From Candidatus Omnitrophota bacterium (GTDB lineage Bacteria > Omnitrophota > Gorgyraeia > Gorgyraeales > Gorgyraeaceae), in contig JBAZEP010000003.1 of the NCBI GenBank assembly GCA_041653835.1, forward strand, positions 3,812 through 67,811: DNA of 64,000 nt, given 5' to 3'. The translations under genes were made by a program, and so were the position numbers. The notes beneath the pieces were generated by a model that saw only the letters and a list, made by a program, of their open reading frames with translations, was not told the origin of the DNA and did no database searches. The stretch's first letter is position 1, and the number at the start of each line of letters is the position of its first letter. Positions 2,500 through 61,592 of this stretch are shown in pieces.

Positions 2500-2508
2500 G
2501 AGGAGAAT

Positions 2509-2763: not shown

Positions 2764-2764
2764 T

Positions 2765-2980: not shown

Positions 2981-4038
2981 TTTTTAAGGGGAAAAAATAT
3001 AAAATTGCAATGCTATTAGGCGCTGGAGCGACTAGGGGAGCATTGAGGGGTGTGTCAAGGCCAGTTATAAGAGCCCCATTAAATAAAGATTTTTTTGAAG
3101 TCGCTAAGAGATTTATTTCTTGCCCAGAAGGTAGAAGATATAAAAATTGTTTTATTCGTGTAAGCAAATTTATTTCTGATCAAATGATGCCGTTTAACAA
3201 AAGGCATCCAACTATGGAAGAAGTTTTTAGCACACTTTTTATGTCTAAAGATTTGCCTGTTATCTTTAAAACAGGAAGGGGTAGAATAAGGAAGGAAGGT
3301 TTTAGGCCTGAAATTAGAGATTTTTTAGTTTTGCTAATTGCTATATTTAGATTTCTTCAAATGAATTTAAAACACAAAGATAACATAGACCATTATGCAA
3401 GATTAGTTGCAAAGTTGGAAGAGGGAGATAGCATTATTACTTTGAATTATGATACTTTAGTAGATAATGCCTTGTTGGGTGTTGGATGGAGACCAGAAAA
3501 TGGCTATGGATTCAACGCTTCTTCTAAAATAATCTATAGTAATTTAAGGGCTGTGAAAAGAAGATTTAAAAATGTTTATCTTTTAAAACCACATGGGTCT
3601 CTAAATTGGTTTGCAAGAGGTAAAATTTCTAATCTTGAAGAAACATTGAGTAGGAAAAATGTTTCAAGGATTGATATTGCAAATGCTCCGCGGCTATATA
3701 CTTTAAAGCAAGATAAGTATGTAAGATTTTTTATTCCCCCTCTTTATACAAAATTTTTCAATAATGATTTCTGGAGATATCTTTGGCATGAATCTTATTT
3801 GAGATTAAAGAATTGTAATTGTTTAATAATAATAGGTTGTTCGTTGATTACAACTGACTATCATTTACGAGCGATACTTTCAAAAGTATTAAAAAGTAAG
3901 AAAAAGTTTAAGAAAATTATCATAGTTGACAAAAATCTAAAAGTAGTGGGTAACCTAAAGAAATTTTTTAGAGGTGCTAGTTTTTCTGGTTGTGAAACAT
4001 ACAATACATTTACGGAATACATAGAAAGTTTAAATTAA
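2977..4038 (+). CDS. SIR2-like (SIR2_2/DUF4020-type) domain protein, candidate NADase defence effector
   Basis: Motifs LLGAGATRGA (glycine-rich NAD-binding), TLNYDTLVDN (TNYD motif) and LLKPHGSLNWF (HG catalytic motif) match defence-associated SIR2_2 proteins. Its start overlaps the stop of HTH paralog 5. Confidence 0.6.
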   Translation: MIFKGKKYKIAMLLGAGATRGALRGVSRPVIRAPLNKDFFEVAKRFISCPEGRRYKNCFIRVSKFISDQMMPFNKRHPTMEEVFSTLFMSKDLPVIFKTGRGRIRKEGFRPEIRDFLVLLIAIFRFLQMNLKHKDNIDHYARLVAKLEEGDSIITLNYDTLVDNALLGVGWRPENGYGFNASSKIIYSNLRAVKRRFKNVYLLKPHGSLNWFARGKISNLEETLSRKNVSRIDIANAPRLYTLKQDKYVRFFIPPLYTKFFNNDFWRYLWHESYLRLKNCNCLIIIGCSLITTDYHLRAILSKVLKSKKKFKKIIIVDKNLKVVGNLKKFFRGASFSGCETYNTFTEYIESLN

Positions 4039-4769: not shown

Positions 4770-5001
4770 TGGTTCTGTAGATATGAACTTAAAACTTCAG
4801 CAGTTCCGCAGGTTTTGATTTCGATGTTTTACCAGCCCTAGCAGGTTTGAGAAAAGCTTTTTGTTTTGCGGGACATAAGATATTGCATTGCTGGGATGTT
4901 GCCTGTCAAAACAAAACAGAGCGAAGCCCACATTACCAAATAATCCATCTTTTGGTTGAGCGTCTTTTCGAAAGCCTGACAGGGATGGCAAAAACACCTT
5001 A

Positions 5002-5044
5002 ACCGCGTAGGATGCCTACGGTAACCTACGCGGTTTTTCTTTTT
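5002..5044 (+). terminator. intrinsic terminator (10-bp stem ACCGCGTAGG/CCTACGCGGT + TTTTCTTTTT)
   Basis: Perfect stem with a 13-nt loop and a T-run, in the non-coding zone after the AT-rich island. Confidence 0.75.
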
Positions 5045-5153
5045 CATTGACACTTTTATAATTTCTGGTAAGATATAGGTACAATTTACTTCAAAAGCGC
5101 GACTGGCGATGCATGCATGGGAAACCATGAGGGAGCGCGAATACGCAAAATCG

Positions 5154-5192
5154 AACGCCTGGGTTTTAAGAATCCAGGCGTTTATTGTTTTT
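5154..5192 (+). terminator. intrinsic terminator (9-bp stem AACGCCTGG/CCAGGCGTT + TATTGTTTTT), 3' end of a candidate small RNA
   Basis: Hairpin plus T-tract about 100 nt downstream of the promoter-like TTGACA at 5046. No ORF lies between them. Confidence 0.65.
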
Positions 5193-5211
5193 GGCCCTTG
5201 ACATTTTGCCC

Positions 5212-5490
5212 ATGAATTCAGGATATTACTTTTATATCTTAGTATGTAGCGATGGTTCTAAATATTATGGCCATACAAATAATTTAGCGAAACGTTTTTC
5301 ATATCATTCAAAAGGATGTGTTTCCTCTACAAAAAGCAAGCGGCCGGTAAAGTTGGTTTATTATGAGGAATTTAATTCCCGGCCAGAAGCTTTTAGAAGA
5401 GAAATGCAGTTTAAAAACGGCAGGACAAGAAAAGAGACTATAGAAAACCTAATAAACTCTTTCGACATGGGCAAAATGTCAAGGGTTTAA
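5212..5490 (+). CDS. GIY-YIG nuclease superfamily protein (YhbQ/UPF0213-like), copy 1
   Basis: [30 protein letters not shown]...[11 protein letters not shown]...[11 protein letters not shown] matches the GIY-YIG motif. The track ORF starts at TTG 5185; the ATG is at 5212. Confidence 0.7.
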
Positions 5491-5566
5491 TTCGCAGACG
5501 GCCTTCGGCCTACAAGTTACGTCGCTACGCTCCATAACTTGTCTGCTCATTAAAGGAGACTATTAT

Positions 5567-7777
5567 ATGTTCACACGCGGACGTTGGGACAAAACAATAG
5601 ATATAAGGGATTTTATTAATAGGAATTATAAGCCGTATGACGGGGATGAGTCATTTTTGTGCGGGCCTACAGCCAGGACCAAAAAACTCTGGCAGGAATG
5701 CCTTACGCTTTTCAAGAAAGAGCACGATAAAGGCGGGGTTTTTGATATCGACGTATCAACTGTATCGACTATCACAAGCCACAAGCCCGGTTATATAGAT
5801 AAGAAGCTTGAGATCATTAAGGGACTGCAGACCGATAAGCCGCTTAAAAGGGCGATAAAGCCGCTGGGCGGCATACGCATGGTGGAGCAGGCCTGCGAGG
5901 ACTATGGGTATGAACTGGATAATAAGATCAAAGAGATATATTTAAAATATCGCAAGACGCATAATGACGGTGTGTTCGATTCTTATACCACGGATATATT
6001 AAGGGCCAGGCGCACAGGACTTATTACAGGCCTGCCGGATAATTATTCAAGGGGAAGGATAATAGGCGATTATAGACGCGTGGCGCTCTACGGCATAGAA
6101 AAGCTTATTAAAGCGAAAAAACATGATAAGGAGCTATTAGAGGATTATTCTTCCCAGGAGGCAGTAAAGTTAAGGGAAGAGATAGCTGACCAGATAGGAG
6201 CCTTGGAAGATATTATAAAATTAGGTAGCTCCTACGGCTTTGACCTGACAAGGCCGGCGGAAGACGCGAAAGAAGCTTTCCAATGGGTTTATCTGGCTTA
6301 TCTCGCGGCCATAAAGGAACAGGACGGGGCAGCAATGAGCCTTGGAAGCGTGAGTAATTTCTTTGATATATACATTGAAAGAGATATTAACCTGGGAAAA
6401 TTGACTGAAGAAAAGGCTCAGGAACTGGTGGATGACTTTGTGATAAAACTGCGCATGGTGCGGCACTTAAGGCCAAAATCATATGATGAGATATTCGCGG
6501 GCGATCCGGTATGGATAACAGAGAGTATAGCGGGGATAGGTATAGACGGCAGGCACAAGGTCACAAAGACATCTTACAGGTTCTTACAGACTTTATACAA
6601 CCTGGGGCCTGCTCCTGAGCCGAATCTTACGGTTTTGTGGTCATCCCGGCTTCCTGAGAATTTTAAGAGATTCTGCGCGAAAGTTTCCATTACCACGAGC
6701 TCTATCCAGTATGAGAATGATGACCTGATGCGCTCCATAGGCGGGGATGATTACAGTATTTCATGCTGTGTGTCGCTTTTAAAGAACGGAAGTGAGATGC
6801 AGTATTTCGGGGCGAGATGTAATCTCGCGAAGGTATTGCTCTACGCGCTAAATGAGGGAAGGGATGAGATCACAGGAGAAACAGTTGTCCCGGGCATAGC
6901 GCCTATAAGTTCTGAGCCACTAGACCATGATGAGGTAAAAGAGCGTTTTATGCAGGTCCTGCGCTGGACCACGAGGACATATGTCCAGGCGCTTAATATC
7001 ATCCATTCAGTGCATGATACGTATTATTACGAACGCTCGCAGATGGCTTTACTTAATACGGAACTCACGCGTTATATGGCATTCGGCATAGCCGGCTTGT
7101 CTGTAGTGGCTGATTCTTTAAGCGCTATACGTTACGCCAAAGTCAGCGCTATACGCAATAATAAAGGCCTTACAACGGATTTTAAGATCAAGGGAGATTT
7201 TTACGCATTTGGGAATGATGATGACAGGGTGGATGGGAGAGTCGTGGACCTCGTTACCACGTTCCTCTCTGAGATCAAAAAACATAAATTTTACAGGGAT
7301 TCTCTTCCCGCGGTTTCTATCCTTACAATTACTTCGAACGTAATGTATGGCAAGAAAACAGGCGCTACCCCTGACGGAAGGAAAAAAGGCGAACCTTTTG
7401 CCCCAGGCGCGAATCCCATGCACGGCAGGGATAAAAACGGGATAGTGGCATCTTTAAATTCCGTAGCGAGTATCCCTTATTCCGAATGCAGGGATGGTAT
7501 ATCGAACACATTTACCACTGTGCCGGATACATTGGGGAAGACTAAGGACGAGCGGATAACGAACCTCGCGGGTTTACTCGAAGGATATTTTATTAAAGGC
7601 GCACAGCACTTGAATGTCAATGTGATAGATAAGGCGACGCTTAAAGACGCGATGAAGCATCCGCATAAATATCCGCAGTTAACTATCCGCGTGTCAGGAT
7701 ACGCTGTTCATTTTAATAAGTTGTCAGGTGAACAGCAGAGAGAGGTCCTGGCAAGGACATTTCATGAAAGCATGTAA
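5567..7777 (+). CDS. pflB: formate C-acetyltransferase (pyruvate formate-lyase)
   Basis: The N-terminus ([20 protein letters not shown]) and the C-terminal glycyl-radical motif (RVSGYAVHF) are both present; the protein is 736 aa. Confidence 0.95.
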
Positions 7778-24944: not shown

Positions 24945-24985
24945 CTAATGTCACATTTAAGACAGTGTCTTAAATGTGACATTAG
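24945..24985. repeat. 41-nt perfect palindrome (REP-like element), copy 1
   Basis: CTAATGTCACATTTAAGACA-G-TGTCTTAAATGTGACATTAG. It lies between convergent genes, 3 nt after the UPF0210 stop. Confidence 0.9.
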
Positions 24986-26777: not shown

Positions 26778-26816
26778 TAAGGGAACATTTATGACAGTGT
26801 CATAAATGTTCCCTTA
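26778..26816. repeat. 39-nt perfect palindrome related to the REP-like family (ATGACAGTGTCAT core), copy 2
   Basis: TAAGGGAACATTTATGACA-G-TGTCATAAATGTTCCCTTA. It overlaps the RBS region of the receptor gene. Confidence 0.85.
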
Positions 26817-31567: not shown

Positions 31568-32501
31568 GCGGGATTTGATTATAGTCGGAGGAGGGCCGGC
31601 AGGCATGGCCGCGGCGATCTCGGCACACGAGAGCGGCGTAAAGGATATACTGCTTATCGAGAGAGACCAGTATCTCGGCGGGATATTGAACCAGTGTATC
31701 CATACCGGGTTTGGCTTGAGTTATTTTAAAGAGGTTTTGACCGGCCCCGAATACGCGGCGCGATTTATCAAAAAGATCGAAGATATGGATGGGATAGATA
31801 TCAGTTTGAGATCAATCGCGGTTAAGCTGACTTCGGATAACGTACTTACATTCCTGAAGCCCGGCAGGCTGGAAGAAGTAAAGGCAAAAGCGATCATCAT
31901 GGCAACGGGCTGCAGGGAAAAAACAAGGGAGATGGTCCATATACAGGGTACAAGGCCGGCGGGTATTTTTTCAGCGGGCCTGGCGCAAAAATTAATGAAC
32001 ATAGAAGGCCTCCTGCCAGGCAGGGAAATAGTGATCGTGGGATCCGGGGATATAGGGCTTATTATGGCGAGAAGGTTTACGCTGGAAGGGGCGAAGGTAA
32101 AGGCTATCATAGAGATACGCAAAGAGACCAGGGGGCTTTTGCGCAACATGGCGCAGTGCGTGGAAGATTTTGACATACCTGTTTATTTTAATCATAAAAT
32201 TTCCAGGATTTACGGAAAAGACAGGGTGGAAAAAGTAAGCGTGATAAAAGTAGACGCGGATTCCAGTGAAATACCCGGCTCTCTGTTCGAGATAAAATGC
32301 GATACCGTGCTCGTATCTGTGGGGCTTATACCCGAGAACGAGCTTATAGAAGCCGCCGGGGTAAGGATAGAGGGGGACAGGACCTCGGCGCCCGGGATTT
32401 TTGTATGCGGGAATTCATTTAAGATATATGATATAGTGGATTCCGTGACCGAGGACAGTTTTTTGGCGGGCAAACTCGCCGCAGATTATATCCTAAAGTA
32501 A
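31560..32501 (+). CDS. NAD(P)/FAD-dependent oxidoreductase (GlpB-like partner of GlpA-like dehydrogenase)
   Basis: IVGGGPAGMAAA and a second Rossmann motif, IVGSGDIGL. Confidence 0.7.
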   Translation: MIKRDLIIVGGGPAGMAAAISAHESGVKDILLIERDQYLGGILNQCIHTGFGLSYFKEVLTGPEYAARFIKKIEDMDGIDISLRSIAVKLTSDNVLTFLKPGRLEEVKAKAIIMATGCREKTREMVHIQGTRPAGIFSAGLAQKLMNIEGLLPGREIVIVGSGDIGLIMARRFTLEGAKVKAIIEIRKETRGLLRNMAQCVEDFDIPVYFNHKISRIYGKDRVEKVSVIKVDADSSEIPGSLFEIKCDTVLVSVGLIPENELIEAAGVRIEGDRTSAPGIFVCGNSFKIYDIVDSVTEDSFLAGKLAADYILK

Positions 32502-32534
32502 GATTTAAGACAATGTCTTAAATCTTACTTTAGG
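32492..32534. repeat. 43-nt perfect palindrome, REP-like family variant, copy 3
   Basis: CCTAAAGTAAGATTTAAGACA-A-TGTCTTAAATCTTACTTTAGG. It overlaps the stop codon of the upstream gene. Confidence 0.9.
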
Positions 32535-40366: not shown

Positions 40367-40903
40367 GTGGATATTCAGGATAGCTGGGAAAAAGCGTTAA
40401 AATACACAAAGATCATAAGGCCGAGGCCGAAGGACCTGCTGACATTCGAACCTACGGATGTGCCTTACCTGTTCCTGGCGGAATCGTCTGTCAATCTGGG
40501 CGATACCGTGGTCAGGAAAGGCGAGGTGCGCGTCGAAAAACCAAACATAATCCTCCCGTCTAATATGCCCCAGTTCGAGGGTTTTGATTTTGACAGGGAA
40601 TTCCAATACGGGCAGGATACGATATTGAACTTTCTTCTTGTCAGGGGCGTCTCATTCCCCTCCCTTAAGTATAACAATAAAACTTCTTCGCTCGATATCT
40701 ATGAGGGCCATCTCGAAAAGGCCGTCGGTTATTATCGCGATAAATTGGAAAGAGGAGAAGATGTCCACAGGGGGCTGGTTACCGGCCCGGAAGACTCCTG
40801 GCAGTTTTCCGTCCTTATCTTTATAGCCTCCCAGATAATACGCTCGGCAGACGGCGATATAAAAAGATTATTGGAACGGTTCAGGGAAGATCGGGATAAT
40901 TAA
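40367..40903 (+). CDS. hypothetical protein
   Basis: 178-aa ORF with no recognisable motif, followed by a strong hairpin. Confidence 0.4.
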   Translation: MDIQDSWEKALKYTKIIRPRPKDLLTFEPTDVPYLFLAESSVNLGDTVVRKGEVRVEKPNIILPSNMPQFEGFDFDREFQYGQDTILNFLLVRGVSFPSLKYNNKTSSLDIYEGHLEKAVGYYRDKLERGEDVHRGLVTGPEDSWQFSVLIFIASQIIRSADGDIKRLLERFREDRDN

Positions 40904-40952
40904 GGTTGAACCTTTGATGCCTTGTTTCCATGGCAAAGGTTCAACCTTAATT
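40898..40952 (+). terminator. long hairpin (19-bp stem AATTAAGGTTGAACCTTTG / CAAAGGTTCAACCTTAATT), probable terminator
   Basis: Perfect 19-bp inverted repeat with a 17-nt loop immediately after the stop codon; the downstream T-tract is weak. Confidence 0.6.
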
Positions 40953-40956
40953 ATTT

Positions 40957-41991
40957 GTGCCCATGCAGAAAAAAGATATCAAAAACCTCACGCTCGAAGA
41001 ATTAAAGGAAGAATTCGGCAGGATTTCCGAGCCTTTATACAGGGCGGCGCAGGTATTTTCCTGGGTCTATAAAAAAGGCGCGGCTGATTTCAGCGCCATG
41101 AATAACCTTCCAAAGGCATTGCGGGATAAGCTGGCGCTGCATTTTTGTATCGGCGCCATAAAACCCCTGAGGCATCTCAAATCTATTGATAAGGCGGAAA
41201 AAGTCCTTTTTCAGCTTACCGACGATAATAAGATAGAAACAGTCCTTATTCCCGCCGCCAGGAGGAATACTCTCTGCGTATCTACGCAGGCGGGCTGTAA
41301 ATACGCGTGCTCTTTCTGCGCGAGCGGCATGAATGGTTTTAAAAGGAACCTCACAACGTCGGAAATATTAAGCCAGGTGTTATTTATGAAGTATAACCTG
41401 AAACACGATCTGACGAATTTTGTTTTTATGGGCATGGGCGAACCTTTTGATAATTATGAAAATGTAGTTAAGGCGATAAGGATAATGAATTCACCCGGGG
41501 CATTGGCGATAGCCGCCAGGAGGATAACTGTTTCCACCTCCGGGATAATACCGGGTATAGAAAAATTCAAAGAATTAGGATTGCAGGTCAATCTTTCCAT
41601 ATCCCTGCACGCCGCGGATAACGCGCTCAGGGATAGATTGATGAGTGTAAATAAAAAATACCCTCTTGAAGAACTCTTAAAGGCTTGCGAAGGTTATATC
41701 AGTTTCGGCGGCAGGATGATCACGCTTGAGTATATAGTAATCAAAGGCGTTAATGACTCTCCGCGGGACGCGGGAGGGCTGGCGCGGATAGCGAAAAGGC
41801 TGAAAGCAAAGGTAAATCTTATAACTTACAGCGATACAGGAATAGCTGATTTTCAGGCCCCTATTAAAGAGGATGTGGAAAGTTTTAAAGATAGTCTTAT
41901 CGAAAAGGGAGTTAACGCGACCATAAGGGAATCCAAGGGCAAAGACATAATGGCGGCATGCGGCCAACTCGCCGCTAGCCCCGTGTCCTAA
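40957..41991 (+). CDS. rlmN: 23S rRNA (adenine2503-C2)-methyltransferase, radical SAM
   Basis: STQAGCKYACSFCASG radical-SAM motif, and the C-terminal MAACGQL catalytic Cys region. Confidence 0.9.
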   Translation: MPMQKKDIKNLTLEELKEEFGRISEPLYRAAQVFSWVYKKGAADFSAMNNLPKALRDKLALHFCIGAIKPLRHLKSIDKAEKVLFQLTDDNKIETVLIPAARRNTLCVSTQAGCKYACSFCASGMNGFKRNLTTSEILSQVLFMKYNLKHDLTNFVFMGMGEPFDNYENVVKAIRIMNSPGALAIAARRITVSTSGIIPGIEKFKELGLQVNLSISLHAADNALRDRLMSVNKKYPLEELLKACEGYISFGGRMITLEYIVIKGVNDSPRDAGGLARIAKRLKAKVNLITYSDTGIADFQAPIKEDVESFKDSLIEKGVNATIRESKGKDIMAACGQLAASPVS

Positions 41992-42028
41992 TGTCACATT
42001 TAAGACACTGTCTTAAATGTGACATTAG
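41988..42028. repeat. 41-nt REP-like palindrome, copy 4
   Basis: CTAATGTCACATTTAAGACA-C-TGTCTTAAATGTGACATTAG. It supplies the rlmN stop codon. Confidence 0.9.
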
Positions 42029-48542: not shown

Positions 48543-48633
48543 TGGAAGTTCTCGACTCTCCGCCTGCGGCGGATCGCTCGAACAATATTCTTCGAGCGAG
48601 CGACCGAAGGAAGTGAGTCGAGAAGTGAAAAAT

Positions 48634-49385: not shown

Positions 49386-51811
<2,426 letters not shown>

Positions 51812-51830
51812 CCTTAACCTTCAAACCTTC

Positions 51831-51875
51831 CCCAAACCCGCATCGGGGAGTCCCCGATGCGGGTTTGGGTTTTTG
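51831..51875 (+). terminator. rho-independent terminator after ahcY (about 19-bp GC-rich stem + T-tract)
   Basis: CCCAAACCCGCATCGGGGA / TCCCCGATGCGGGTTTGGG followed by TTTTTGGG. Confidence 0.8.
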
Positions 51876-51877
51876 GG

Positions 51878-52972
51878 TTAATTCCTTATCAGTATTATCC
51901 CCACAGATCCGAATATTATATTTGCCAGATGGGCTGAAAGAAAAGGCGGGAGCGCCCCGCTTTTGCCGAGCGCGATGAAACTTGCCATAAACGCGTAGTA
52001 AATAAATCCTATCACGATACTCATACCTATCCCGACCAGCGCCGAGGCCCTGCCTCTCTGTCTTATCTTTAAAGCGAAGCCCGCGCCTATCAATATTACC
52101 ACGAGGCTGGCGAACGGGAGGCTTATTTTCTGATGCAGGTCCACGTGAAGCCTGGCTATTAATTTAGGCGATGTCTCCGAAAAGTTCTTTATATAGTTCG
52201 AGAGGTCCATATAGCTCATATATTCGTAATTCGTGCCTTTGGATATAAGGTCTTCCGGGCTTTCCATGTCCAGGACCCTTTTTTGGAAGAATTCCGGCGA
52301 ACCGACCACTGCGCCTTTTCTGTCCAGCTTGTACGCGAGCACGCTCGAGAAAAGCCATTTTCTGCCCGCCCATCTCGCTTCATGGGCATTTATTTTTAGC
52401 GACACATTGTCTCTTTTGTCCTGCTGGAGTATAGTGATGCCGTAAGCGGTTTTGGATGACGGGTCGAAATTGTCTATGAATATAAGGCGGTTATTTTTGC
52501 CGTAGAGCGCGATATTGGATATATTTTTCCTGGCGGCGGATGTATTTTTATCCACACTGTCCATGTAATTTTCTTTTATCGATTCCGCTTTTCTCATGCT
52601 TTGCGGGAGTATCCTTTCGGATATGCCGAACATGATTATTGTCACCGCTATCCCCACACATATGAACGGCGCCAGTATCCTGTATATACTTATACCCGCG
52701 GCGCGCATGGCGGTGATCTCACCGTATTTATTGAGCGAGCCCAGGACATATATGGAGGATATCAGGCTCGCCACGGGCGCGGTCTGCGAGACGATAAGGG
52801 GTATCATCGACAGATAGTATTCCCATAATATCCCGATGTGTATATTTTGTTTCAGGACCTCGTCCAGCCTGCCGAAAAGGTCGATGATGACATAAAGGAT
52901 GACAAATACCAGGAGGCAGTATATAAGAGGCAGTATAAAATATTTAGCTATGTATTTGTCCAATATTCGCAT
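51878..52972 (-). CDS. lptG: LptF/LptG family LPS export permease
   Basis: YjgP/YjgQ topology. It is adjacent to its paralog. Confidence 0.75.
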   Translation of the reverse strand: MRILDKYIAKYFILPLIYCLLVFVILYVIIDLFGRLDEVLKQNIHIGILWEYYLSMIPLIVSQTAPVASLISSIYVLGSLNKYGEITAMRAAGISIYRILAPFICVGIAVTIIMFGISERILPQSMRKAESIKENYMDSVDKNTSAARKNISNIALYGKNNRLIFIDNFDPSSKTAYGITILQQDKRDNVSLKINAHEARWAGRKWLFSSVLAYKLDRKGAVVGSPEFFQKRVLDMESPEDLISKGTNYEYMSYMDLSNYIKNFSETSPKLIARLHVDLHQKISLPFASLVVILIGAGFALKIRQRGRASALVGIGMSIVIGFIYYAFMASFIALGKSGALPPFLSAHLANIIFGSVGIILIRN

Positions 52973-52975
52973 GAT

Positions 52976-54073
52976 TTAAGCTTCTATGGTTTTACGCAAC
53001 AATATTATCCCTGCCATGCCTACGATCAAATTAGGCAGGTACATCCAGAATGCCGGGCTCAACACGCCTTTCAGGGATAACGCTATGCTTAAAGCCATCA
53101 ATAGATAGTATAATACGATAAGCCCCAGCGCCACGGCGAATTGGATGGTCTTTTCCCCGCGCCGTGTATATATCCCCAGCGGGATCCCTATGATCATGAA
53201 GACCAGGCTGGCGAAAGACATGGATATCTTCCTGTGGAATTCCGTAACGAGGTTCGGAGTATCCACGTGATACCTGCCAAGTTTTTTGATCTCGTTTTTT
53301 ATTTCCCTGAAATTCATCTCTTTGGGTTTTTTTTCCGTATAGCCGCTGGACGCTATGGATTCATCCACATTCAGGGTCAGGTAATATGTCTTGAAATTCA
53401 GTTTATAGAAATTTACGGGATTCTTCGGGTTAGGTTCGTCGCTTGTGCCGTTTGTAAGTTTTAATTTTACCGCGTTCTGGTTGTCGAGCGTTATGAATTC
53501 CCCTCTTTCCGCTATGATGGTCCTGGTGGAATGTTCGTCCTGCGGCTGGTATATGCGGACGCCCTTCAGCCTATTGCCGTTTATCTCATGGATGAATATT
53601 ATGTAGCCTTTGAAACTTTTTATGAATGTCCCGGGTTCAAGGTACGCGGCAGGGGTCTTTACCCCGATATTCCTTACGATCTTTCTGGACTCGAAATGCA
53701 TCCCGGGTATTATATCGTTATTCAACATCACCGAGATAAGGCTGAACGAGAGACCCAGGATGACCAGTGGAAGAGCCAGCCTGTAAAGATTTATGCCGCT
53801 TGAGCGCATGGCGGTAATCTCGTTGTCCCCCGAAAGCCTGCCGAATACAAGGAGCGTGGAAGTCAATATGGACATCGGTATGGTATAACTCAGCAGGAAT
53901 GGTATAAGATAAAGGAACAGCCTGCCCACAAGCCTTATATCCACGCCTTTATTTATCACGAGCTCCGCGAGCCTTATTATATTACCTATTACGAGGGTAA
54001 AGGTGAATATCGCCAGGGAAAAGAAAAACATGGTAAATATCTCTTTTATTATATATCTGCGCAGTATTTTCAT
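52976..54073 (-). CDS. lptF: LptF/LptG family LPS export permease
   Basis: YjgP/YjgQ topology. Confidence 0.75.
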   Translation of the reverse strand: MKILRRYIIKEIFTMFFFSLAIFTFTLVIGNIIRLAELVINKGVDIRLVGRLFLYLIPFLLSYTIPMSILTSTLLVFGRLSGDNEITAMRSSGINLYRLALPLVILGLSFSLISVMLNNDIIPGMHFESRKIVRNIGVKTPAAYLEPGTFIKSFKGYIIFIHEINGNRLKGVRIYQPQDEHSTRTIIAERGEFITLDNQNAVKLKLTNGTSDEPNPKNPVNFYKLNFKTYYLTLNVDESIASSGYTEKKPKEMNFREIKNEIKKLGRYHVDTPNLVTEFHRKISMSFASLVFMIIGIPLGIYTRRGEKTIQFAVALGLIVLYYLLMALSIALSLKGVLSPAFWMYLPNLIVGMAGIILLRKTIEA

Positions 54074-54849
54074 AGGTCATTTCCCCGGGCGAGCGTTATT
54101 ACCTCCACATATCCCGCGCCTGACTCCTTGAGGAGCCTCGAGCATTCATTGACGGTAGAGCCCGTGGTGAAAAGGTCGTCCACGAGCAGGATATTTTTAC
54201 CCCGGACGGATGAGCCGCTCTTCAAAGAAAAGCTGGAGCGGAGATTTTTTACTCTTTCCTGTCTTTTAAGCTTGCTCTGGGGCAGGGTGTCTTTTATTTT
54301 CCTGAGTGTGTTTCCATAATAAGGTATTCTCATTTCTTTCCCTAATTTACGCGCCAGGATGCCGGAATGATTGATTTCCCTCTCGAATAACCTGGCGGGA
54401 GACATCGGTACGGGTAATATCATCCCGCACTTCCTGCCTACGCCGTATTTTTTCATAAAACCCGCCATCAGCGTAGTAAAGTCCGAAGACAGGGAAGTTA
54501 TTTTCCTGTATTTAAAATCATGTATAAGGCCTTTCAGCGGGCCGTCATAATGGAATGCCGACCACGCGCGGTCAAAATACGGCTCATCTTTTTTGCAATC
54601 CGCGCATACATTTACCTGCTCAGGATCGCCTTCGAGCCGCCTGCCGCATCTCGCGCAGAAGGGAGGGAGCCTTTCCTTTATGCTTTTGGCGCACGCGGGG
54701 CAGACATTGCGGTTGTATTTGTCCGTCCTCCCGCCGCACACCCTGCACAGGACGGGATAAAGCAGATTTACCACGGTTTTCAGCATAGGATAAATATAAC
54801 ACAACGGGTAATTAAATGCAAAGCTTTCAATTAAACAAAATTCCTTCAC
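54070..54849 (-). CDS. comF: ComF-family phosphoribosyltransferase-domain protein
   Basis: N-terminal double zinc-finger Cys pairs and a C-terminal PRTase motif (LLVDDLFTTGST). Confidence 0.8.
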   Translation of the reverse strand: MKEFCLIESFAFNYPLCYIYPMLKTVVNLLYPVLCRVCGGRTDKYNRNVCPACAKSIKERLPPFCARCGRRLEGDPEQVNVCADCKKDEPYFDRAWSAFHYDGPLKGLIHDFKYRKITSLSSDFTTLMAGFMKKYGVGRKCGMILPVPMSPARLFEREINHSGILARKLGKEMRIPYYGNTLRKIKDTLPQSKLKRQERVKNLRSSFSLKSGSSVRGKNILLVDDLFTTGSTVNECSRLLKESGAGYVEVITLARGNDL

Positions 54850-54881
54850 ATTATTATATTTTTATGCTATATTGTTCAAAT

Positions 54882-55613
54882 ATGGCGGATAATAATATAG
54901 ATAATATAGAAGAAAAAATGAGGAACCTTGAGGATTGGAACAGCGAACGCGCCAGGATTAAGCCGGTCCTGGAAGTGGCTGTCGATTTCCATAATAAAGC
55001 GCGGCGCGAAAGGTACTGGAAAAATTTCGAAAAGGCCTCGGAGTTCTACGTGCAGGCTATCGCGAACTACAGAAGCGCGCTCAAGCTGGATCCGAGGTAT
55101 TACCTGCAGGATATTGTAGAAAGAGTGGATTCCGTCATAGAAGAGCATGTGAATAATATGTTTAACCTTAAGGTAAGCGGGGACAGGTTAAAGACCGTCC
55201 AGGGCGTCAAAGAATTTATGGAGTTTGTGGAAGGCCTTAGTGCCGACGAAAAGAAATATGTGGACCGCTATGAGATAGCGTCGACTTATTTCAAAATAGG
55301 CGAACTGTATCTGGGGGACGGGGATATAGACAGGGCATATGAATTTTTTAATAAAGTAATAGATATGGAATGCAACAGGCCTTTCCTTAACAGGGATACA
55401 TATTTAAATATAGGCAGGATACAATTCGATAAGAAAAGATACAAAGAAGCCCTTGTGAGTTTTGTTTCCATGCTTTCTTTTGACAGGGGTAACGCGGATG
55501 CCGTAGTTTATCTCGACATGTGTTTAAAGGAATTAAAGATATTCGAACACAGGTTCAAATTTTTATCCGCGGCGCCGAACGAGGCTAAAAAACTTATAAT
55601 GGAGGTATTATGA
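54882..55613 (+). CDS. TPR-repeat protein
   Basis: Helical repeat content. The start is chosen at the first ATG that does not overlap comF. Confidence 0.5.
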   Translation: MADNNIDNIEEKMRNLEDWNSERARIKPVLEVAVDFHNKARRERYWKNFEKASEFYVQAIANYRSALKLDPRYYLQDIVERVDSVIEEHVNNMFNLKVSGDRLKTVQGVKEFMEFVEGLSADEKKYVDRYEIASTYFKIGELYLGDGDIDRAYEFFNKVIDMECNRPFLNRDTYLNIGRIQFDKKRYKEALVSFVSMLSFDRGNADAVVYLDMCLKELKIFEHRFKFLSAAPNEAKKLIMEVL

Positions 55614-55990
55614 TCAATGATTTTTTTGCGGAGAAAAGGAGGTATCCCAGGATCGAGTTGAGCCTGGACGCCAAGTATAAGATACTGGATTATGAGCAGG
55701 TATATCAGTACGGCAAGACCCAGAATGTATCCGCCGAAGGCGTGTGTTTCGCGTCCGGCGAGCCTTTGAAGTCGGGGGTTTATGTCCAGCTCGAGGTGGA
55801 CATAAAGGACGGATATCCGCCTGTATCCATGGTAGCCGAAATAAGGTGGACCGGCGACGTTAAGGCCGGCAGGGACAAAAAATATATAAACGGCGTCAAG
55901 ATCGTAAATATGCCGGCGAAGGATGAGGCGAGGTTTTTGAAATATTATTGCGATAAAATAGTGGAAAAATTATCAGCTTACCTTAAATAA
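55610..55990 (+). CDS. PilZ domain protein
   Basis: RRYPRIEL...NVSAEGVCF PilZ c-di-GMP-binding motifs. Confidence 0.7.
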   Translation: MINDFFAEKRRYPRIELSLDAKYKILDYEQVYQYGKTQNVSAEGVCFASGEPLKSGVYVQLEVDIKDGYPPVSMVAEIRWTGDVKAGRDKKYINGVKIVNMPAKDEARFLKYYCDKIVEKLSAYLK

Positions 55991-56005
55991 AACAGGAGGG
56001 GCAAT

Positions 56006-56398
56006 ATGGTAATACGTTTATTGTTGGTTCTCGCGCTGGTGTTCGGCTTAACGGGGTGCCTTAAAAAGGCTTCGGACGAGAGCATGTCCACGGACGCGGG
56101 TGTTATGGAAGAAAATATGACCGGAGCGGGCGAAGAAACGATGGACCAGGGGAAGAGCGTATCAGTCGAAGCAGATTTCAGCCAGCCGTCTTCGATGGAA
56201 AAGCCGACCGTTCAGGATATCCAGGAGGCCTTGAAGAGCGCGGGCCTTTACCAGGGCAGGATAGACGGCATACTTGGGCCCAACACCAGGAAGGCCATAG
56301 AGACTTTCCAATTGCAGAATGATTTGAAAGTGGACGGCAAGGTCGGCCCCAAGACATGGGAAAAATTGAAAGAATACCTGGATAGAAATCCGGAATAA
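56006..56398 (+). CDS. lipoprotein with peptidoglycan-binding (PG_binding_1) domain
   Basis: Lipobox LTGC and a C-terminal LYQGRIDGILGPNTRKAIETFQ. Confidence 0.7.
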   Translation: MVIRLLLVLALVFGLTGCLKKASDESMSTDAGVMEENMTGAGEETMDQGKSVSVEADFSQPSSMEKPTVQDIQEALKSAGLYQGRIDGILGPNTRKAIETFQLQNDLKVDGKVGPKTWEKLKEYLDRNPE

Positions 56399-56406
56399 CG
56401 TTCAAA

Positions 56407-57066
56407 ATGAATCCGGACGACAGTAAAAAAAGATACAGCATAGTCCACGAAGACGAATACCTGATCATAGTAAACAAACCTTCCGGGATGCTCGTTGTCC
56501 CGACCCCTAAAGGGGAAACCAACACGCTCACGGACCTTTTGAATCTGGAACTGGACGGCCGCGGCGTTACGGTCAACGCCTACCCCTGCCACAGGATCGA
56601 CAGGGAAACCTCAGGCCTTGTTATTTACGCCAAAGGTAAGTCCATCCGGGATGCCATGATGGACCAGTTCAAGAAACGCCTCGTGAAAAAGACCTATATC
56701 GCGTTTGCCCATGGCGTTGTGCGGAAAGACTCCGATACCCTTAAAGGCGAGGTGTACAGCCGCAAAAAACGTAAATCCGAATTCATGATCACGAAATACA
56801 GGGTCATTGAGAGAAGACGGGATTTTACGATAGTGGAAGTAGCGCCCCTTACAGGCAGGACAAACCAGATCAGGCTCCATTTCAAGGCACTCGGCAATCC
56901 TCTCGTAGGAGAGAGCGTATACGCCTTCAGGAAAGATTTTAAACTGAAATTCAAAAGAACGGCGCTGCACGCGAAGGCGCTGGAATTCAACCACCCTGTC
57001 ACGGGGAAGAGGATGGCTTTTAACCTGCCTTTACCCGATGATATGGCGGACTTTATCAAAAGATGA
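56407..57066 (+). CDS. RluA-family pseudouridine synthase
   Basis: HRIDRETSGLVIYAK catalytic Asp motif. Confidence 0.85.
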   Translation: MNPDDSKKRYSIVHEDEYLIIVNKPSGMLVVPTPKGETNTLTDLLNLELDGRGVTVNAYPCHRIDRETSGLVIYAKGKSIRDAMMDQFKKRLVKKTYIAFAHGVVRKDSDTLKGEVYSRKKRKSEFMITKYRVIERRRDFTIVEVAPLTGRTNQIRLHFKALGNPLVGESVYAFRKDFKLKFKRTALHAKALEFNHPVTGKRMAFNLPLPDDMADFIKR

Positions 57067-58067
57067 AAATAATATTGGAATTGATATTGCTTGTAATATT
57101 ACTCTTGATAGGCGCGCTTACCGCCGCGTCCGAGACGTCTATTATCGCGGCAAGCATTGTAAAACTGAGGCGTCTGGCGGCTGACGGGTCAAAGCCCGCG
57201 AAGATGATATTGAGGATACTTGAGGCGCCGGAGAAATTTTTCGGCACCATGGTTGTTTCGAACAATATAGTGAACTCATTTATAGCCGCTATCATTACAG
57301 CTATAATAATATCTTTTATGGGCGAAAACACGCGGAGCGTGCTGGTAGCGACTTTAATATCGGCGTTTCTTATAATAGTTTTTGAGGTTGCGGCCAAAAC
57401 ACTATCTGCCGGCAGTCCGATAAGAATATCCCTGGCGCTCGTCAGGATGGTGAAGACCCTGATATTCATATTCTCGCCCGCTGTCAGGGCGCTTTCCGTG
57501 ATAACTAATTTTATAGTAAATCTCCTTGGCGGGAAAACCAAAGGCAAGGCCTCTCTTGTGGTGGAAGACGAGATAAAAGCCCTTATCAGGATAGGCGAGG
57601 AAGAAAGCCCGCGCCATAAAGATAAATACAGGATGCTTTCGAAGATATTCGAATTCAGCAATACCGTGGTGAAAACCGTGATGGTGCCCAAGGACAGGAT
57701 GATGTCTATAAATATTGATAACAATATAGATGATATACTTGACTTTGTCCTGGAATCGGGTTATTCCAGGATCCCTGTCTATAAAGACAGGCCGGACAAC
57801 ATAATCGGCGTCATAAATATGAAGGACCTGCTGAACCTGTCCGTGAACAGGGACCTTGTGATCCTGCAGGATGTTATCTATCCTCCCATATTTGTCACGG
57901 ATTCAAAAAATGTAACGGAACTGTTGAAGGAATTCCAGAAGGGCCATACGCATCTCGCTATCGTGGTCGATCCCACGGGCAAGATCCAGGGCCTGGTAAC
58001 CCTGGAAGACCTGCTTGAAGAAATAGTCGGGGAGATAGAGGACGAATCCGACATCCGCAATGCGTAA
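57063..58067 (+). CDS. HlyC/CorC-family transporter (DUF21 + CBS pair)
   Basis: N-terminal DUF21 TM domain and CBS domains. Confidence 0.85.
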   Translation: MKIILELILLVILLLIGALTAASETSIIAASIVKLRRLAADGSKPAKMILRILEAPEKFFGTMVVSNNIVNSFIAAIITAIIISFMGENTRSVLVATLISAFLIIVFEVAAKTLSAGSPIRISLALVRMVKTLIFIFSPAVRALSVITNFIVNLLGGKTKGKASLVVEDEIKALIRIGEEESPRHKDKYRMLSKIFEFSNTVVKTVMVPKDRMMSINIDNNIDDILDFVLESGYSRIPVYKDRPDNIIGVINMKDLLNLSVNRDLVILQDVIYPPIFVTDSKNVTELLKEFQKGHTHLAIVVDPTGKIQGLVTLEDLLEEIVGEIEDESDIRNA

Positions 58068-59253
58068 ATTCGATACTATAGTTATAGGGGGCGGCGCGTC
58101 AGGCATAATAGCCGCTATCAGCGCGCGCCGCAACGGCAGGAATGTTATGATCTGCGAACGGATGAACCGTCTCGGGAAAAAGATACTTGTTTCAGGAGGC
58201 GGCCGGTGCAATATCTCGAACGCGGACCTGAGCGAAGCGCGTTATAATACCGGGGCGCGAGAGCTTGTAAAAAATGTATTTTCCAGGTTTGGCAAAGAAG
58301 ATATAGAAAAGTTTTTCAATGAAATCGGATTAAGGGTTTATCCGGAAGGGGACAGACTTTTTCCCGTCACTAACCAGGCGGCAAGCGTTTTGAAAGTTTT
58401 AGAGGAAGAGCTCAAGAGGCTGAAAATACCGGTAGAATCCGGTTTTAACGCGGCAGGTATCGCGGCGCGGCCTGACGGCAAAGGATATTTGGTAAAGTTC
58501 GGAAGCGGCGATGTTATATCCGCGGATTCCGTTATAATAACCGGCGGGGGCAGGAGTTATCCGAGCCTTGGTTCAGACGGGAGTTGCTATGGCCTGGCGC
58601 GTTCATTAGGCCATAAGATCATAGAACCTGTGCCGAGCGCTGTCCCGCTTTTGTCTAAAGACAGGTTCTGCCATTTTCTCCAGGGCCAGAGAATACAATG
58701 TTCCGCGAAAAGCGTTATAGAGGGTAAAATAAAAAAAGAGGCAAAAGGAGAATTGCTTTTCACGAAATACGGATTATCAGGCACCGCTATCCTGGATATA
58801 AGCGAGGACATCTCGATAGCCCTGAACAGGCTCGGGGACAAGGCCGCGGCTGTTTTGATAGACATGGTGCCTTTCATGAGCGCCGTGGAGATCGAAAAGG
58901 AAATAGAGAAGAGGATCCAAAAAGGTATCGCGCCGGAAGACCTGATGACGGGGCTCTTGCCGAATAAATTCAGCCTTGTTTTCAGGGACTTGTTCAAGGG
59001 TTTAAACGCCGGGGAAATAACAGGACTGTTAAAAAACAAAAGATTTGATATAATAGGTACCAGAGGCTGGAACGAAGCAGAGTTCACGGCAGGAGGTGTG
59101 GATACGCGGGATGTAAGGGAAGATACCCTTGAGTCAAAATTAAAAAAAGGCGTTTATTTCGCGGGAGAGATCCTGGATGTAAACGCCGGACGGGGCGGAT
59201 ACAATTTAGCCTGGGCATGGGCATCAGGCTATATAGCAGGTTTAACAAAATAG
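58060..59253 (+). CDS. NAD(P)/FAD-dependent oxidoreductase, HI0933/BaiN-like
   Basis: FDTIVIGGGASGIIAA and ILVSGGGRCN motifs. Confidence 0.8.
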   Translation: MRKFDTIVIGGGASGIIAAISARRNGRNVMICERMNRLGKKILVSGGGRCNISNADLSEARYNTGARELVKNVFSRFGKEDIEKFFNEIGLRVYPEGDRLFPVTNQAASVLKVLEEELKRLKIPVESGFNAAGIAARPDGKGYLVKFGSGDVISADSVIITGGGRSYPSLGSDGSCYGLARSLGHKIIEPVPSAVPLLSKDRFCHFLQGQRIQCSAKSVIEGKIKKEAKGELLFTKYGLSGTAILDISEDISIALNRLGDKAAAVLIDMVPFMSAVEIEKEIEKRIQKGIAPEDLMTGLLPNKFSLVFRDLFKGLNAGEITGLLKNKRFDIIGTRGWNEAEFTAGGVDTRDVREDTLESKLKKGVYFAGEILDVNAGRGGYNLAWAWASGYIAGLTK

Positions 59254-59261
59254 GAGGTAAC

Positions 59262-59495
59262 ATGCCGTACGATGCGAGTCTTGATAAAGAAATATTTGCC
59301 AAATCTTTCGAAAATGATGACGGAAAGATCACAGTCAGTGTCCATTCATACAACAATGGCCCCAAAAAGATACAGATAGTCAGGGAAAACAGGGACCAGG
59401 AAGGCGCCCTCAGGTTCGCCAAGCTCGGAAGGATGACCAAGGACGAACTCCAGGCAGTCCTGCCTTTTATCCAGGAAGCCCTTTCCAGTATGTAA
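59262..59495 (+). CDS. PC4/YdbC-like small ssDNA-binding protein (tentative)
   Basis: 77 aa; AGGAGGT RBS. The KITVSVHSYNNGPKKIQIVRE pattern resembles bacterial PC4-like proteins. Confidence 0.45.
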   Translation: MPYDASLDKEIFAKSFENDDGKITVSVHSYNNGPKKIQIVRENRDQEGALRFAKLGRMTKDELQAVLPFIQEALSSM

Positions 59496-59505
59496 TCCGG
59501 TTACG

Positions 59506-60699
59506 ATGAAAATTTTTATTCAGACCTTCGGGTGCCAAATGAATGAGCATGATTCCGAGAGAGTAAGGGACATGCTTGTCCAGGGAGGGTATGCCCTCGC
59601 GGAAAAGATCGAGGACGCGGATATTGTAATTTTCAATACCTGCAGTGTAAGGGCTCATGCCGAAGCGAGGCTTTACGGCAAGATAGGCACCCTTAAGGAT
59701 GTGAAGGCAAAAAAGCCGGGCCTTATTATAGGTGTGATCGGATGTATGGTTGAGGCGCAGAAACAAGAGATTTTCAGGAGACTGCCGCATGTAAATTTTT
59801 TGTGCGGGCCCGCGGACCTGGACAGGATCCCTGAAATATTGGATAAGATACAGGCCGGCGCCGGGCAAATCGCTTATCTGGAGGCGTATAAGCTGAAAAA
59901 GATCCCCGCGTTTTCAAAAGACAGGAACGCGGGCCATGCCGGCTTCGTCAAGATAATGGAAGGCTGTGATAATTTCTGCTCATATTGCATTGTGCCCTAT
60001 GTACGCGGAAGGGAAAGGAGCAGGCCTTCGAAAGAAATTTTGCAGGAAATAGAAGACCTGATAAAAAAGGGCGCCAAAAATATCACGCTTTTAGGCCAGA
60101 ACGTGAATTCATACGGCAAAGGCCTTAAAGAAAAAATCGATTTCGTCTCGCTTTTGACAAAAATAGACAAATTAACCTCCATCCTGCCCCACCCCTGGGG
60201 TGCCACCCCAGGGGTGGCACCCCAGGGGTGGGGAAGCGGTAAGGAAGTTAAGATAAGTTTTATGACCAGCCATCCAAAGGACGCCGGCCCGGAATTATTC
60301 AAAGCGATAAGGGATCTAATATCGGTTTCAAAGAATCTGCACCTGCCTCTCCAGTCCGGTTCGGATAAAATCCTCAAAAAGATGAACCGGAAATACACCG
60401 CGGCAAAATATAAAAAACTCGTCAAGGATTTCAGGAAGATCGTCAAAAACGGCACTGTCACGAGCGATATCATCGTAGGTTTCCCAGGGGAAACCAAAAA
60501 AGATTTCAATGACACTTTAAAGATGGTCAAAGAACTAAGATTTGGCGGCGCCTATATCTTTAAATATTCCCCGCGTCCTCTAACCAAAGCCTTTGGATTC
60601 AAGGATAATGTCAGCCTTAAAGAGAAAGAGCGTCGCCACTCCATACTTTTAAAACTGCAAAAGGAGATGTCTAATGCCACATTTAAGACAGTGTCTTAA
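59506..60699 (+). CDS. miaB: tRNA-2-methylthio-N6-dimethylallyladenosine synthase (MTTase), carries an in-frame 14-aa repeat-encoded insert
   Basis: FGCQMNEHDSE and CDNFCSYC radical-SAM motifs. The TSILPHPWGATPGVAPQGWGSG segment is encoded by a 3x14-nt palindromic repeat. The 3' end runs into REP-like palindrome copy 5. Confidence 0.85.
   Translation: MKIFIQTFGCQMNEHDSERVRDMLVQGGYALAEKIEDADIVIFNTCSVRAHAEARLYGKIGTLKDVKAKKPGLIIGVIGCMVEAQKQEIFRRLPHVNFLCGPADLDRIPEILDKIQAGAGQIAYLEAYKLKKIPAFSKDRNAGHAGFVKIMEGCDNFCSYCIVPYVRGRERSRPSKEILQEIEDLIKKGAKNITLLGQNVNSYGKGLKEKIDFVSLLTKIDKLTSILPHPWGATPGVAPQGWGSGKEVKISFMTSHPKDAGPELFKAIRDLISVSKNLHLPLQSGSDKILKKMNRKYTAAKYKKLVKDFRKIVKNGTVTSDIIVGFPGETKKDFNDTLKMVKELRFGGAYIFKYSPRPLTKAFGFKDNVSLKEKERRHSILLKLQKEMSNATFKTVS
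60190..60230. repeat. three tandem 14-nt units of palindromic CACCCC(T/A)GGGGTG inside miaB
   Basis: Units at 60190-60202, 60204-60216 and 60218-60230. Unit 1 is the reverse complement of units 2 and 3. Confidence 0.9.
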
Positions 60700-60711
60700 A
60701 TGTGGCATTAG
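60671..60711. repeat. 41-nt REP-like palindrome, copy 5 (compensated C/G variant)
   Basis: CTAATGCCACATTTAAGACA-G-TGTCTTAAATGTGGCATTAG. It supplies the miaB stop codon. Confidence 0.9.
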
Positions 60712-60716
60712 GGAAT

Positions 60717-61592
60717 ATGCCGGTCATATTTTTAGTCGGTCCTACAGCTTCTGGCAAAACAAAACTTTCCATTAAACTGGCGGGAAAACTGAACGCCGAG
60801 ATAGTATCCTGTGACTCTATGTGTGTCTATAGAGGCATGGATATACTTACCTCAAAACCTTCGAAGGCCGAGTTGAGAAAGGCGCGCCACCATCTTATAG
60901 ATATAATTTCCCCGTCAAAAGAATTCAGCGTTGCCGAGTACCGCAGGATGGCGCTTGAAAAGATAGAAGATATCCTGAAGCGCGGCAAGACCCCATTATT
61001 CGTGGGAGGCAGCGGTTTATATGTGAAGGCTGTGATAGACGGTTTATTCCCTTCGGCGGAGAAGGACCTGAAATTCAGGAAAGAACAGGAAACGCTCGCG
61101 GAAAAATACGGCAAAAGGTATTTATACAGAAAATTAAAAAAAATAGACGCGAGCCGCGCCGCGAAGATACATCCCAATGACATGAGGCGTGTCATTAGGG
61201 CGCTCGAGATCTACCATACGGAAAAGAAAAAACCTTCGGAACTTAGCAGGGCTACGGAGCCGCTGAAATACGGCTTTAAGATATTCGGCGTCAGCCTGGA
61301 AAGGGACGCGCTTTACAGGAATATAGATAAAAGGGTTGAGGAGATGTTCGAAAAAGGCATTGTGAAGGAAGTAAAGAAACTTTCACGGAAAAGGCTCAGT
61401 ATGACCGCGAAAAAGGCATTGGGGTATAACGAGGCGCTGGGTTATTTAAAGGGCAGGTATTCCCTGGAAGACGCCAAGGCGCTTCTCAAAAAAAATACCC
61501 GTCATTTCGCCAGGAGACAGCTGACCTGGTTCCGTCCTGACTGCCGCATCCGCTGGCTCTCGCTCCACCAACTGGAAAAATATAATGGGTAA
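60717..61592 (+). CDS. miaA: tRNA dimethylallyltransferase
   Basis: IFLVGPTASGKT P-loop. The adjacent MiaB acts next on the same nucleotide (i6A37 to ms2i6A). Confidence 0.9.
   Translation: MPVIFLVGPTASGKTKLSIKLAGKLNAEIVSCDSMCVYRGMDILTSKPSKAELRKARHHLIDIISPSKEFSVAEYRRMALEKIEDILKRGKTPLFVGGSGLYVKAVIDGLFPSAEKDLKFRKEQETLAEKYGKRYLYRKLKKIDASRAAKIHPNDMRRVIRALEIYHTEKKKPSELSRATEPLKYGFKIFGVSLERDALYRNIDKRVEEMFEKGIVKEVKKLSRKRLSMTAKKALGYNEALGYLKGRYSLEDAKALLKKNTRHFARRQLTWFRPDCRIRWLSLHQLEKYNG

Follow-up and report, generated by a model that had tools for sequence, protein, structure and literature searches.

A tandem array of palindromes within miaB of a Candidatus Omnitrophota bacterium: probable in-frame insertion of a REP/REPIN-type element

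The DNA analyzed here, a stretch of 64,000 nucleotides from contig JBAZEP010000003.1 of a Candidatus Omnitrophota bacterium (assembly GCA_041653835.1; referred to as the window), carries a miaB gene whose coding sequence is interrupted by an array of three short palindromic repeats (Table 1). The gene adjoins miaA and lies directly upstream of it. Its product scored 406 bits against TIGR01574 (cut-off 355), covering profile positions 1-375 of 437, and was also matched by PF00919 (UPF0004) and PF04055 (Radical_SAM). Cysteine residues C10, C46, C80 and C154/C158/C161 are invariant and every Fe-S cysteine motif is present. The nearest homologues are annotated as Candidatus Omnitrophota or Omnitrophica. 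A search of genome contigs with the MiaB protein alone returned mainly MiaB of other phyla, with five usable Omnitrophota loci. No match to the TRAM domain (PF01938) was found in the window MiaB. TRAM-less MiaB proteins are typical of the clade, with more than 100 homologues of 350-430 aa lacking PF01938, and among the 120 matches listed the domain is kept only by P0110, P0113, P0115 and P0120. One homologue, P0092, is a 654-aa MiaB-MiaA fusion.

Each 14-nt unit of the array consists of a perfect 13-nt palindrome, CACCCCWGGGGTG, and one spacer base. As described in an earlier, sequence-only reading of this DNA, the first unit is the exact reverse complement of the second and third, which are identical to each other and together form a perfect 28-nt tandem duplication; the centre and spacer bases read T-c-A-g-A-g in order. 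Three matches to the unit were observed in the window against 0.04 expected, all of them in the array, which Tandem Repeats Finder reported with a period of 14, 3.0 copies and a score of 70. None of the six frames of the array core contains a stop codon, and HPWGATPGVAPQG is encoded on either strand. Around this core are outer arms, TTAAC...GTTAA and CCTCCATCC...GGTAAGG, which delimit a hairpin of approximately 80 nt. The strong hairpin formation predicted earlier was borne out by folding, with a minimum free energy of -65.4 kcal/mol as RNA compared to -35.6 +/- 3.4 kcal/mol for shuffled sequences (z = -8.9), and of -35.1 kcal/mol as DNA (z = -8.2). The hairpin is not a terminator, because no T-run follows it; a terminator scan likewise returned no terminator-like site at the element. 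When positions 59400-61000 were scanned with Rfam only sub-threshold miRNA-hairpin look-alikes were returned, with no family above threshold.

Within MiaB the array encodes HPWGATPGVAPQGW(G), and three comparisons confirmed the earlier suggestion that it represents an in-frame mini-insertion. When the query was aligned with 120 homologues, a short loop without insert was present in 61 sequences of the resulting 121 (counting the query), and other MiaB proteins have 4-5 residues at this position. The solved MiaB structure from B. uniformis (7MJV/7MJZ) has a 4-residue turn where the insert aligns, the query being approximately 19 residues longer, and places the insert between the helix ...LLRTVAEAAPG and the strand VRIRFTTSHP, ahead of TSHPKD. 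At the codon level, comparison of empty (L106, L102, L103) and filled (L097, L098, L099, L088) loci gave an empty-site allele of AAA TTA|GGC GAT ATT AAA, with an insertion of 54 nt in two relatives and of approximately 63 nt in the window, the boundaries of which are uncertain by a few nt. In an AlphaFold2 model with a mean predicted local distance difference test score (pLDDT) of 83.5, the insert forms a loop at residues 227-248 between a helix (213-226) and a strand (249-252), with pLDDT below 50 at residues 237-245. The model thus predicts that the insert is in a disordered, permissive alpha-to-beta surface loop of MiaB, and from the topology of the radical-SAM barrel this loop would be expected on the face opposite the Fe-S/S-adenosylmethionine site.

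The element is not confined to miaB. Fifteen loci were retrieved when metagenomes were scanned for two tandem units; 14 were in contigs of 36-46% GC and one was in an unrelated contig of 72% GC. At least four exact copies are present on a 378-kb contig which also carries the miaB gene of P0008, a MiaB protein that, loop excluded, shares 71% identity with the query; further copies are on other contigs from that sample. The dispersed copies are composed of 2-3 units of CACCCCWGGGGTG between short inverted arms, and those with two units are perfect palindromes around the spacer base. The arm consensus derived from 19 copies is roughly AACCT-n-CCG[core]CGG-n-AGGTT. Arms containing GTAG (CCTACCG/CGGTAGG) were found in L083, L085 and one copy in L094, with TTCCG arms in other copies; the arm of the window copy is CGGTAAGG, in which this tag is degenerate (GTAA rather than GTAG). 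Several copies are intergenic, and 5 of 13 distinct copies are in-frame within conserved genes. In-frame copies occupy the same loop of 5-enolpyruvylshikimate-3-phosphate synthase (AroA) in two relatives, in different reading frames and with two units in one relative and at least three in the other. A three-unit copy is in-frame in a GT9 heptosyltransferase, another is read in yet another frame (PPLGCHPRGG) in a radical-SAM protein, and the C-terminal tail of a radical-SAM/DUF6873 protein is formed by a copy. When the insert peptide (30 aa) was compared with 1.84 billion representative proteins, one spurious repetitive match was obtained, the query being too short to inform.

The most telling copies are a pair on that 378-kb contig, in locus L094, which bracket an open reading frame (ORF) at 6499-7146 on the minus strand encoding 215 aa. 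The two copies, at 6458-6484 (spacer C) and 7171-7197 (spacer G), are 14 nt and 24 nt from the ends of the ORF and are in opposite orientation, because their spacer bases are complementary. The encoded protein matched the Pfam family Y1_Tnp (PF01797) with 31.2 bits (cut-off 23) and carries the HUH-like motifs PTHTHLV and RYIHLNP. Inverted copies of REP sequences (repetitive extragenic palindromes) around the gene for a REP-associated tyrosine transposase (RAYT) are the signature arrangement of REPs and of REP doublets forming hairpins (REPINs) (PMC3116915; PMC3733652).

On this evidence, the array in the window is probably the core of a REP/REPIN-type palindromic element whose in-frame insertion into a permissive MiaB loop has become fixed. 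The element would have been spread by a RAYT-type single-strand transposase, and within genes only in-frame, stop-free copies in tolerant loops would survive. The third unit may have arisen by duplication of one 14-nt unit, and MiaB presumably keeps its function despite a floppy loop of approximately 21 residues; the tandem units would make the site prone to slippage. What had been missed in the sequence-only reading is that the repeat is probably a copy of a dispersed, RAYT-associated REP/REPIN-type element that is found in-frame in other housekeeping genes too.

The miaB junction itself has a complex history among relatives. In the remaining half, approximately, of the 120 relatives, palindromic inserts are present at the same junction; their sequences fall into no fewer than seven families unrelated to one another: A (HPWGATPGV...), B (VHLSGEPxGSPDRW), C (SPLPSPLWGEGRV), D (RDCFASLAMTK), E (RAGLNLPYG), F (SNQVRSGR) and G (SPYGDSR). 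Wherever the DNA of an insert could be read it was a GC-rich hairpin or perfect palindrome, and insert-bearing regions folded more strongly (-37 to -88 kcal/mol) than empty sites (-20 to -25 kcal/mol). Types A and B both begin after the same AAA TTR codon pair. Outside the loop, the type-A protein P0008 shares 91% identity with the type-B proteins P0044 and P0029, so turnover at the junction is fast or recurrent. In a neighbour-joining tree of 110 homologues with the loop masked, the insert types were interspersed, the tree being too rough for events to be counted. The MiaB copies of type A have a common arm, ACCTCT, where the arms of dispersed copies differ, an indication that the MiaB copies share a common descent or have undergone allelic exchange. 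Their cores are 90-93% identical to the window in DNA, and 91-100% at third-codon positions. A sliding-window scan of DNA identity found no raised identity in the insert flanks and no sign of a recent recombination tract. In the dispersal search the exact B-type palindrome unit was found only in miaB of L100. Two palindromic elements are present in the radical-SAM/DUF6873 protein of L085 (582 aa; 4917-6662, minus strand): a B-like element in-frame in its middle (CACCTGTCAGGTGAACCAGTTGGCCAACCTGACAGGTTGG, peptide HLSGEPVGQPDRL) and an A-type two-unit element as its last 10 codons. A more distant Omnitrophota MiaB (46% identity; L006, approximately 1549-1720) has another insertion, INRLAVSGSRLAAEPQAPS, approximately 15 residues upstream of the hotspot, which is encoded by tandem CGGTTAG-like repeats.

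Conservation of the array was measured against four relatives. The core has 79-93% DNA identity to the window compared with 70-73% for the rest of the gene, and third-codon identity is 75-100% in the core versus 52-58% elsewhere in the gene. Wherever unit centres or spacers differ, one base has been exchanged for its complement (A/T, C/G), a pattern which we infer to fit flipping of single-base hairpin loops.

Several observations weigh against a REP/REPIN-type origin as formulated above. The protein encoded in L094 scored 60.5 bits against the NCBIfam model REP_Tyr_transpos (NF047646), below the curated cut-off of 80. Multi-copy status and the transposase link were seen in relatives only: the window contains a single copy of the element and no RAYT, and tblastn found no match in the window or the other loci with either the L094 protein or E. 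coli RayT (an approximate query). The flanks of 19 copies, inspected by eye, had neither a consistent target-site duplication nor a common flank. Random insertion followed by a selection filter explains poorly why at least seven unrelated palindrome families occur at one junction. Finally, an old insertion without constraint should have decayed, so the near-perfect conservation of the stem needs an additional process at the DNA level, such as gene conversion, hairpin-templated correction or selection.

Variation in unit number bears directly on the proposal that the array is a switch. In silico, the window miaB with one unit fewer encodes 240 aa and with one unit more 254 aa, and the statement that gain or loss of a unit would frameshift the gene was therefore upheld. 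All three records of the window gene (JGI, NCBI and Logan) have three units, as do P0002, P0008, P0106 and P0005 (71-75% protein identity); P0009 MiaB has a single unit. P0005 contains three identical units, CATCCCAGGGGCGC x3, all with the same two derived substitutions, so the array must have been homogenised internally. Twelve sequences make up the 90% cluster of P0005, and ten of these cover the loop. Eight of these ten have a 3-unit loop and the other two, P0133 (245 aa) and P0128 (252 aa), end in ...IHPRGAIPGARR followed by a stop codon. P0133 is from a 45,682-nt ENA contig; deletion of one unit from miaB of L098 in silico reproduced it residue for residue, and the remainder of the gene equals P0131 on the same contig. 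From these sequences it appears that an allele lacking one unit, and truncating MiaB, is present in public assemblies of a sister lineage, with assembler collapse a possible source. As a control, ten other clusters were inspected (64 members, 58 listed), and no gene was split at the loop among those listed; one 1-nt frameshift was found elsewhere in miaB. In P0160 and P0155 (a 2,587-nt JGI contig) a 1-nt frameshift at ...KNITLLGQNV divides miaB into two parts, and its product ends in KNIRFWARM before the stop; the N-terminal part resembles P0003 and the C-terminal part is identical to P0006, which suggests a chimeric contig or a recombinant allele.

The earlier proposal of a slipped-strand contingency locus, at which gain and loss of units reversibly and advantageously toggle MiaB and thereby ms2i6A37 tRNA modification, is the foremost of the alternatives, although we consider it unlikely. 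The length of the unit, which is not a multiple of 3, and the early stops produced by a change of one unit in either direction are as such a switch would require, and units 2 and 3 offer a perfect duplication. The homogenised array of the P0005 lineage, the exact one-unit-deletion allele in two of its ten loop-covering sequences, and the differing unit numbers in AroA (2 versus at least 3) and MiaB (3 versus 1 in P0009) also speak for it. At this locus, however, comparison with relatives, which had been named as a check that could refute the switch, went largely against it, with exactly three units kept in four diverged relatives as well as in every record of the window gene. Classic contingency loci have longer tracts than three units, and this array is only three units long. 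The element is also present at many places where no switch is conceivable, and neither an allele with an added unit nor a reversion was seen in public sequences. The two-unit allele may simply be a null mutation or result from collapse by the assembler, and broken alleles are not specific to the array, given the miaB gene split by a 1-nt frameshift in another lineage. For the locus in the window the proposal is unsupported, while the deletion allele of the sister lineage lends it some substance. The possibility that the array is an artefact of assembly or sequencing, which strong hairpins and repetitive sequence might favour, is scarcely credible. A Logan contig assembled independently from SRR18595300 is 100% identical to window positions 49539-60699 (11,161 nt), array included, and orthologous three-unit arrays are present in four further assemblies from other samples. 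The 42-nt array is by our estimate below typical short-read length, and since unit 1 is not the same as units 2 and 3, no k-mer recurs in it at k = 31.

A different explanation is that the hairpin is a selected nucleic-acid structure in the miaB mRNA or DNA, kept convergently for translation pausing, mRNA stabilisation or protein binding. The occupation of an AAA-TTR|GGY junction by GC-rich palindromes of so many unrelated families, and the much lower fold energies of the filled sites, would be accounted for in this way. Conservation of the stems is seen in the DNA itself, the B family showing a compensatory stem change, and the peptide frame differs among host genes, so it is the DNA and not the peptide that is conserved. 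Nevertheless, the sequences without insert include close relatives of the same gene order, and the units of the P0005 lineage have lost much of their self-complementarity (-45 kcal/mol) while the insert is still kept. The elements are also intergenic and in unrelated genes, and neither an Rfam family nor a terminator signature was found. We therefore regard selection on the hairpin as improbable and place it behind the switch. Very unlikely is a functional role for the peptide HPWGATPGVAPQGW, for example as a new interaction loop of MiaB under protein selection. In-frame inserts with similar peptides (HPWGATPGV, HPRGATPGV and related forms) do occur in five lineages, but this likeness follows from DNA identity, third-codon positions included, and the same DNA is read elsewhere in other frames as PPLGCHPRGG and SPQGCHPRGA. 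In addition, the loop is predicted to be disordered, and close relatives have wholly different inserts or none. Translational bypassing of the byp type was set aside: all inserts keep the frame and lack stops, a requirement for translation but not for bypassing.

An in-frame REP/REPIN-type element in miaB would bring Omnitrophota, an uncultivated phylum, into the range of in-frame selfish DNA within proteins, which is known from Rickettsia palindromic elements (RPE) and intragenic REPs, and would tie coding palindromes to a RAYT-like transposase. It would also provide a natural example of a REP-derived tandem array giving rise to a null allele of a tRNA-modification enzyme. The codon junction in miaB used by many palindromes offers a test case for target choice by RAYT and for tolerance of loop insertions. 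In metagenome-assembled genomes, inserts of this kind can lead gene calling, alignment and the calling of pseudogenes astray. If the REP-derived array worked as a heritable switch, which is unlikely, Omnitrophota populations would stochastically toggle ms2i6A37 modification and hence translational fidelity, and repeated colonisation of the junction would reflect either selection for mutability or a structure-directed, RAYT-type insertion hotspot.

Other features of the window are included in Table 1. Just upstream of miaB is a small ORF whose position is conserved in L098, L102 and L103. The P0005 lineage has four additional genes (AbiEi_2, NTP_transf_8, metallophosphatase and AAA_18 kinase-like; L098 7199-9964) between this ORF and miaB, and these are not there in the window. 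A second, AT-rich family of perfect palindromes, approximately 41 nt long around a single central nucleotide (e.g. CTAATGTCACATTTAAGACA-n-TGTCTTAAATGTGACATTAG) has five copies in the 64 kb against 0 expected. These copies are within, or overlap the edges of, short inter-ORF gaps, and none was found in the loci of relatives. The last of them provides miaB with its final 9 codons and TAA stop, also overlaps the miaA start codon, GTG, and contains the end of the Logan contig. Three further strong hairpins may be terminators or further repeat families, and the first 4,000 nt of the window may be a foreign or otherwise atypical segment.

Table 1. Coordinates of the miaB array and of other features in the 64-kb window
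Feature	Position	Strand	Description or evidence
miaB, TRAM-less methylthiotransferase, 397 aa	59506..60699	+	TIGR01574, UPF0004, Radical_SAM
Whole hairpin-forming element	~60172..60251	no strand	RNA and DNA folds, inverted repeat, 19-copy arm consensus
Approximate net insertion, 63 nt = 21 codons, TSILP-HPWGATPGVAPQGW-GS	60175..60237	+	versus empty-site allele of relatives
Inverted repeat centred on array	60184-60236		26-nt arms, 96% complementary
Tandem array	60190-60231		three 14-nt units
Unit 1	60190-60202		CACCCCTGGGGTG, spacer c
Unit 2	60204-60216		CACCCCAGGGGTG, spacer g
Unit 3	60218-60230		CACCCCAGGGGTG, spacer g
Small ORF upstream of miaB	59217-59495	+	92 aa by ORF listing, 77 aa elsewhere; no Pfam match
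AT-rich palindrome, copy 1	24945-24985		
AT-rich palindrome, copy 2	26778-26816		
AT-rich palindrome, copy 3	32492-32534		
AT-rich palindrome, copy 4	41988-42028		
AT-rich palindrome, copy 5	60671-60711		
Intergenic hairpin	40896-40954		perfect 21-nt arms, 17-nt loop
Intergenic hairpin	48549-48624		38-nt arms, 79% complementary
Hairpin between convergent genes	51831-51869		perfect 19-nt arms (CCCAAACCCGCATCGGGGA)
Segment of low GC	1-4000		GC 0.31-0.34 versus ~0.46-0.49 over most of window

With respect to known systems, the element most resembles REPs and REPINs, which are likewise short GC-rich palindromes dispersed in the genome, with inverted doublets folding to hairpins and two opposite copies around a single Y1/HUH transposase gene (Bertels & Rainey 2011, PMC3116915; Di Nocera et al. 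2013, PMC3733652), the dispersal being seen here on contigs of relatives and the transposase arrangement in the relative locus L094. Intragenic in-frame REP dimers encoding 20-30 aa have been documented, some of them in tRNA-related genes, and in recB of two Xanthomonas species different REPs occur at about the same site (PMC3733652). Since intragenic REPs have already been described, the array in the window adds to a known class. It differs from typical members in that the unit is a perfect 13-nt palindrome with a CCWGG centre, present in 2-3 head-to-tail copies with a 14-nt period. An unpaired GTAG (or CGTC) tag at one end is a defining feature of REPs (PMC3733652), whereas here GTAG is found in some copies only and is degenerate in the window copy. 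REPs are also defined as extragenic, while the share of intragenic copies here (5 of 13 sampled) is unusually high, and the RAYT link comes from a relative rather than from the source genome.

RPE are found in-frame in conserved housekeeping genes (Ogata et al. 2000, 2002, as cited in PMC10969869 and PMC3733652). As selfish palindromic DNA that is in-frame, translated and tolerated at sites compatible with the fold, they are matched by the element described here. RPE are approximately 100-150 bp in length and known from Rickettsia (PMC10969869), and the present element is set apart from them by its size (41-80 nt) and host, Omnitrophota, as well as by its tandem sub-units and the RAYT-like gene in a relative. 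MITEs (miniature transposable elements with inverted repeats) in coding sequences, e.g. Correia, ERIC and Nezha, are small non-autonomous elements with inverted ends that can make in-frame fusions (PMC10969869). Inverted arms and in-frame insertion are shared with these, but neither a target-site duplication nor long terminal inverted repeats were recognised by eye in 19 copies, and the enzyme is of the Y1 HUH and not the DDE type. Contingency loci, too, are tandem repeats within genes with a unit length that 3 does not divide, and public assemblies of the sister lineage contain a deletion allele that truncates MiaB; the array differs from them in its three units, its origin from a mobile palindrome and its location in a housekeeping tRNA-modification gene rather than a surface or restriction-modification gene. 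A literature search for palindromic elements of Omnitrophota or Omnitrophica found no relevant report. Against this background, the tandem architecture of perfect 13-nt palindromes, the hotspot in miaB used by multiple families and the natural null allele with one unit deleted in a sister lineage are worth noting.

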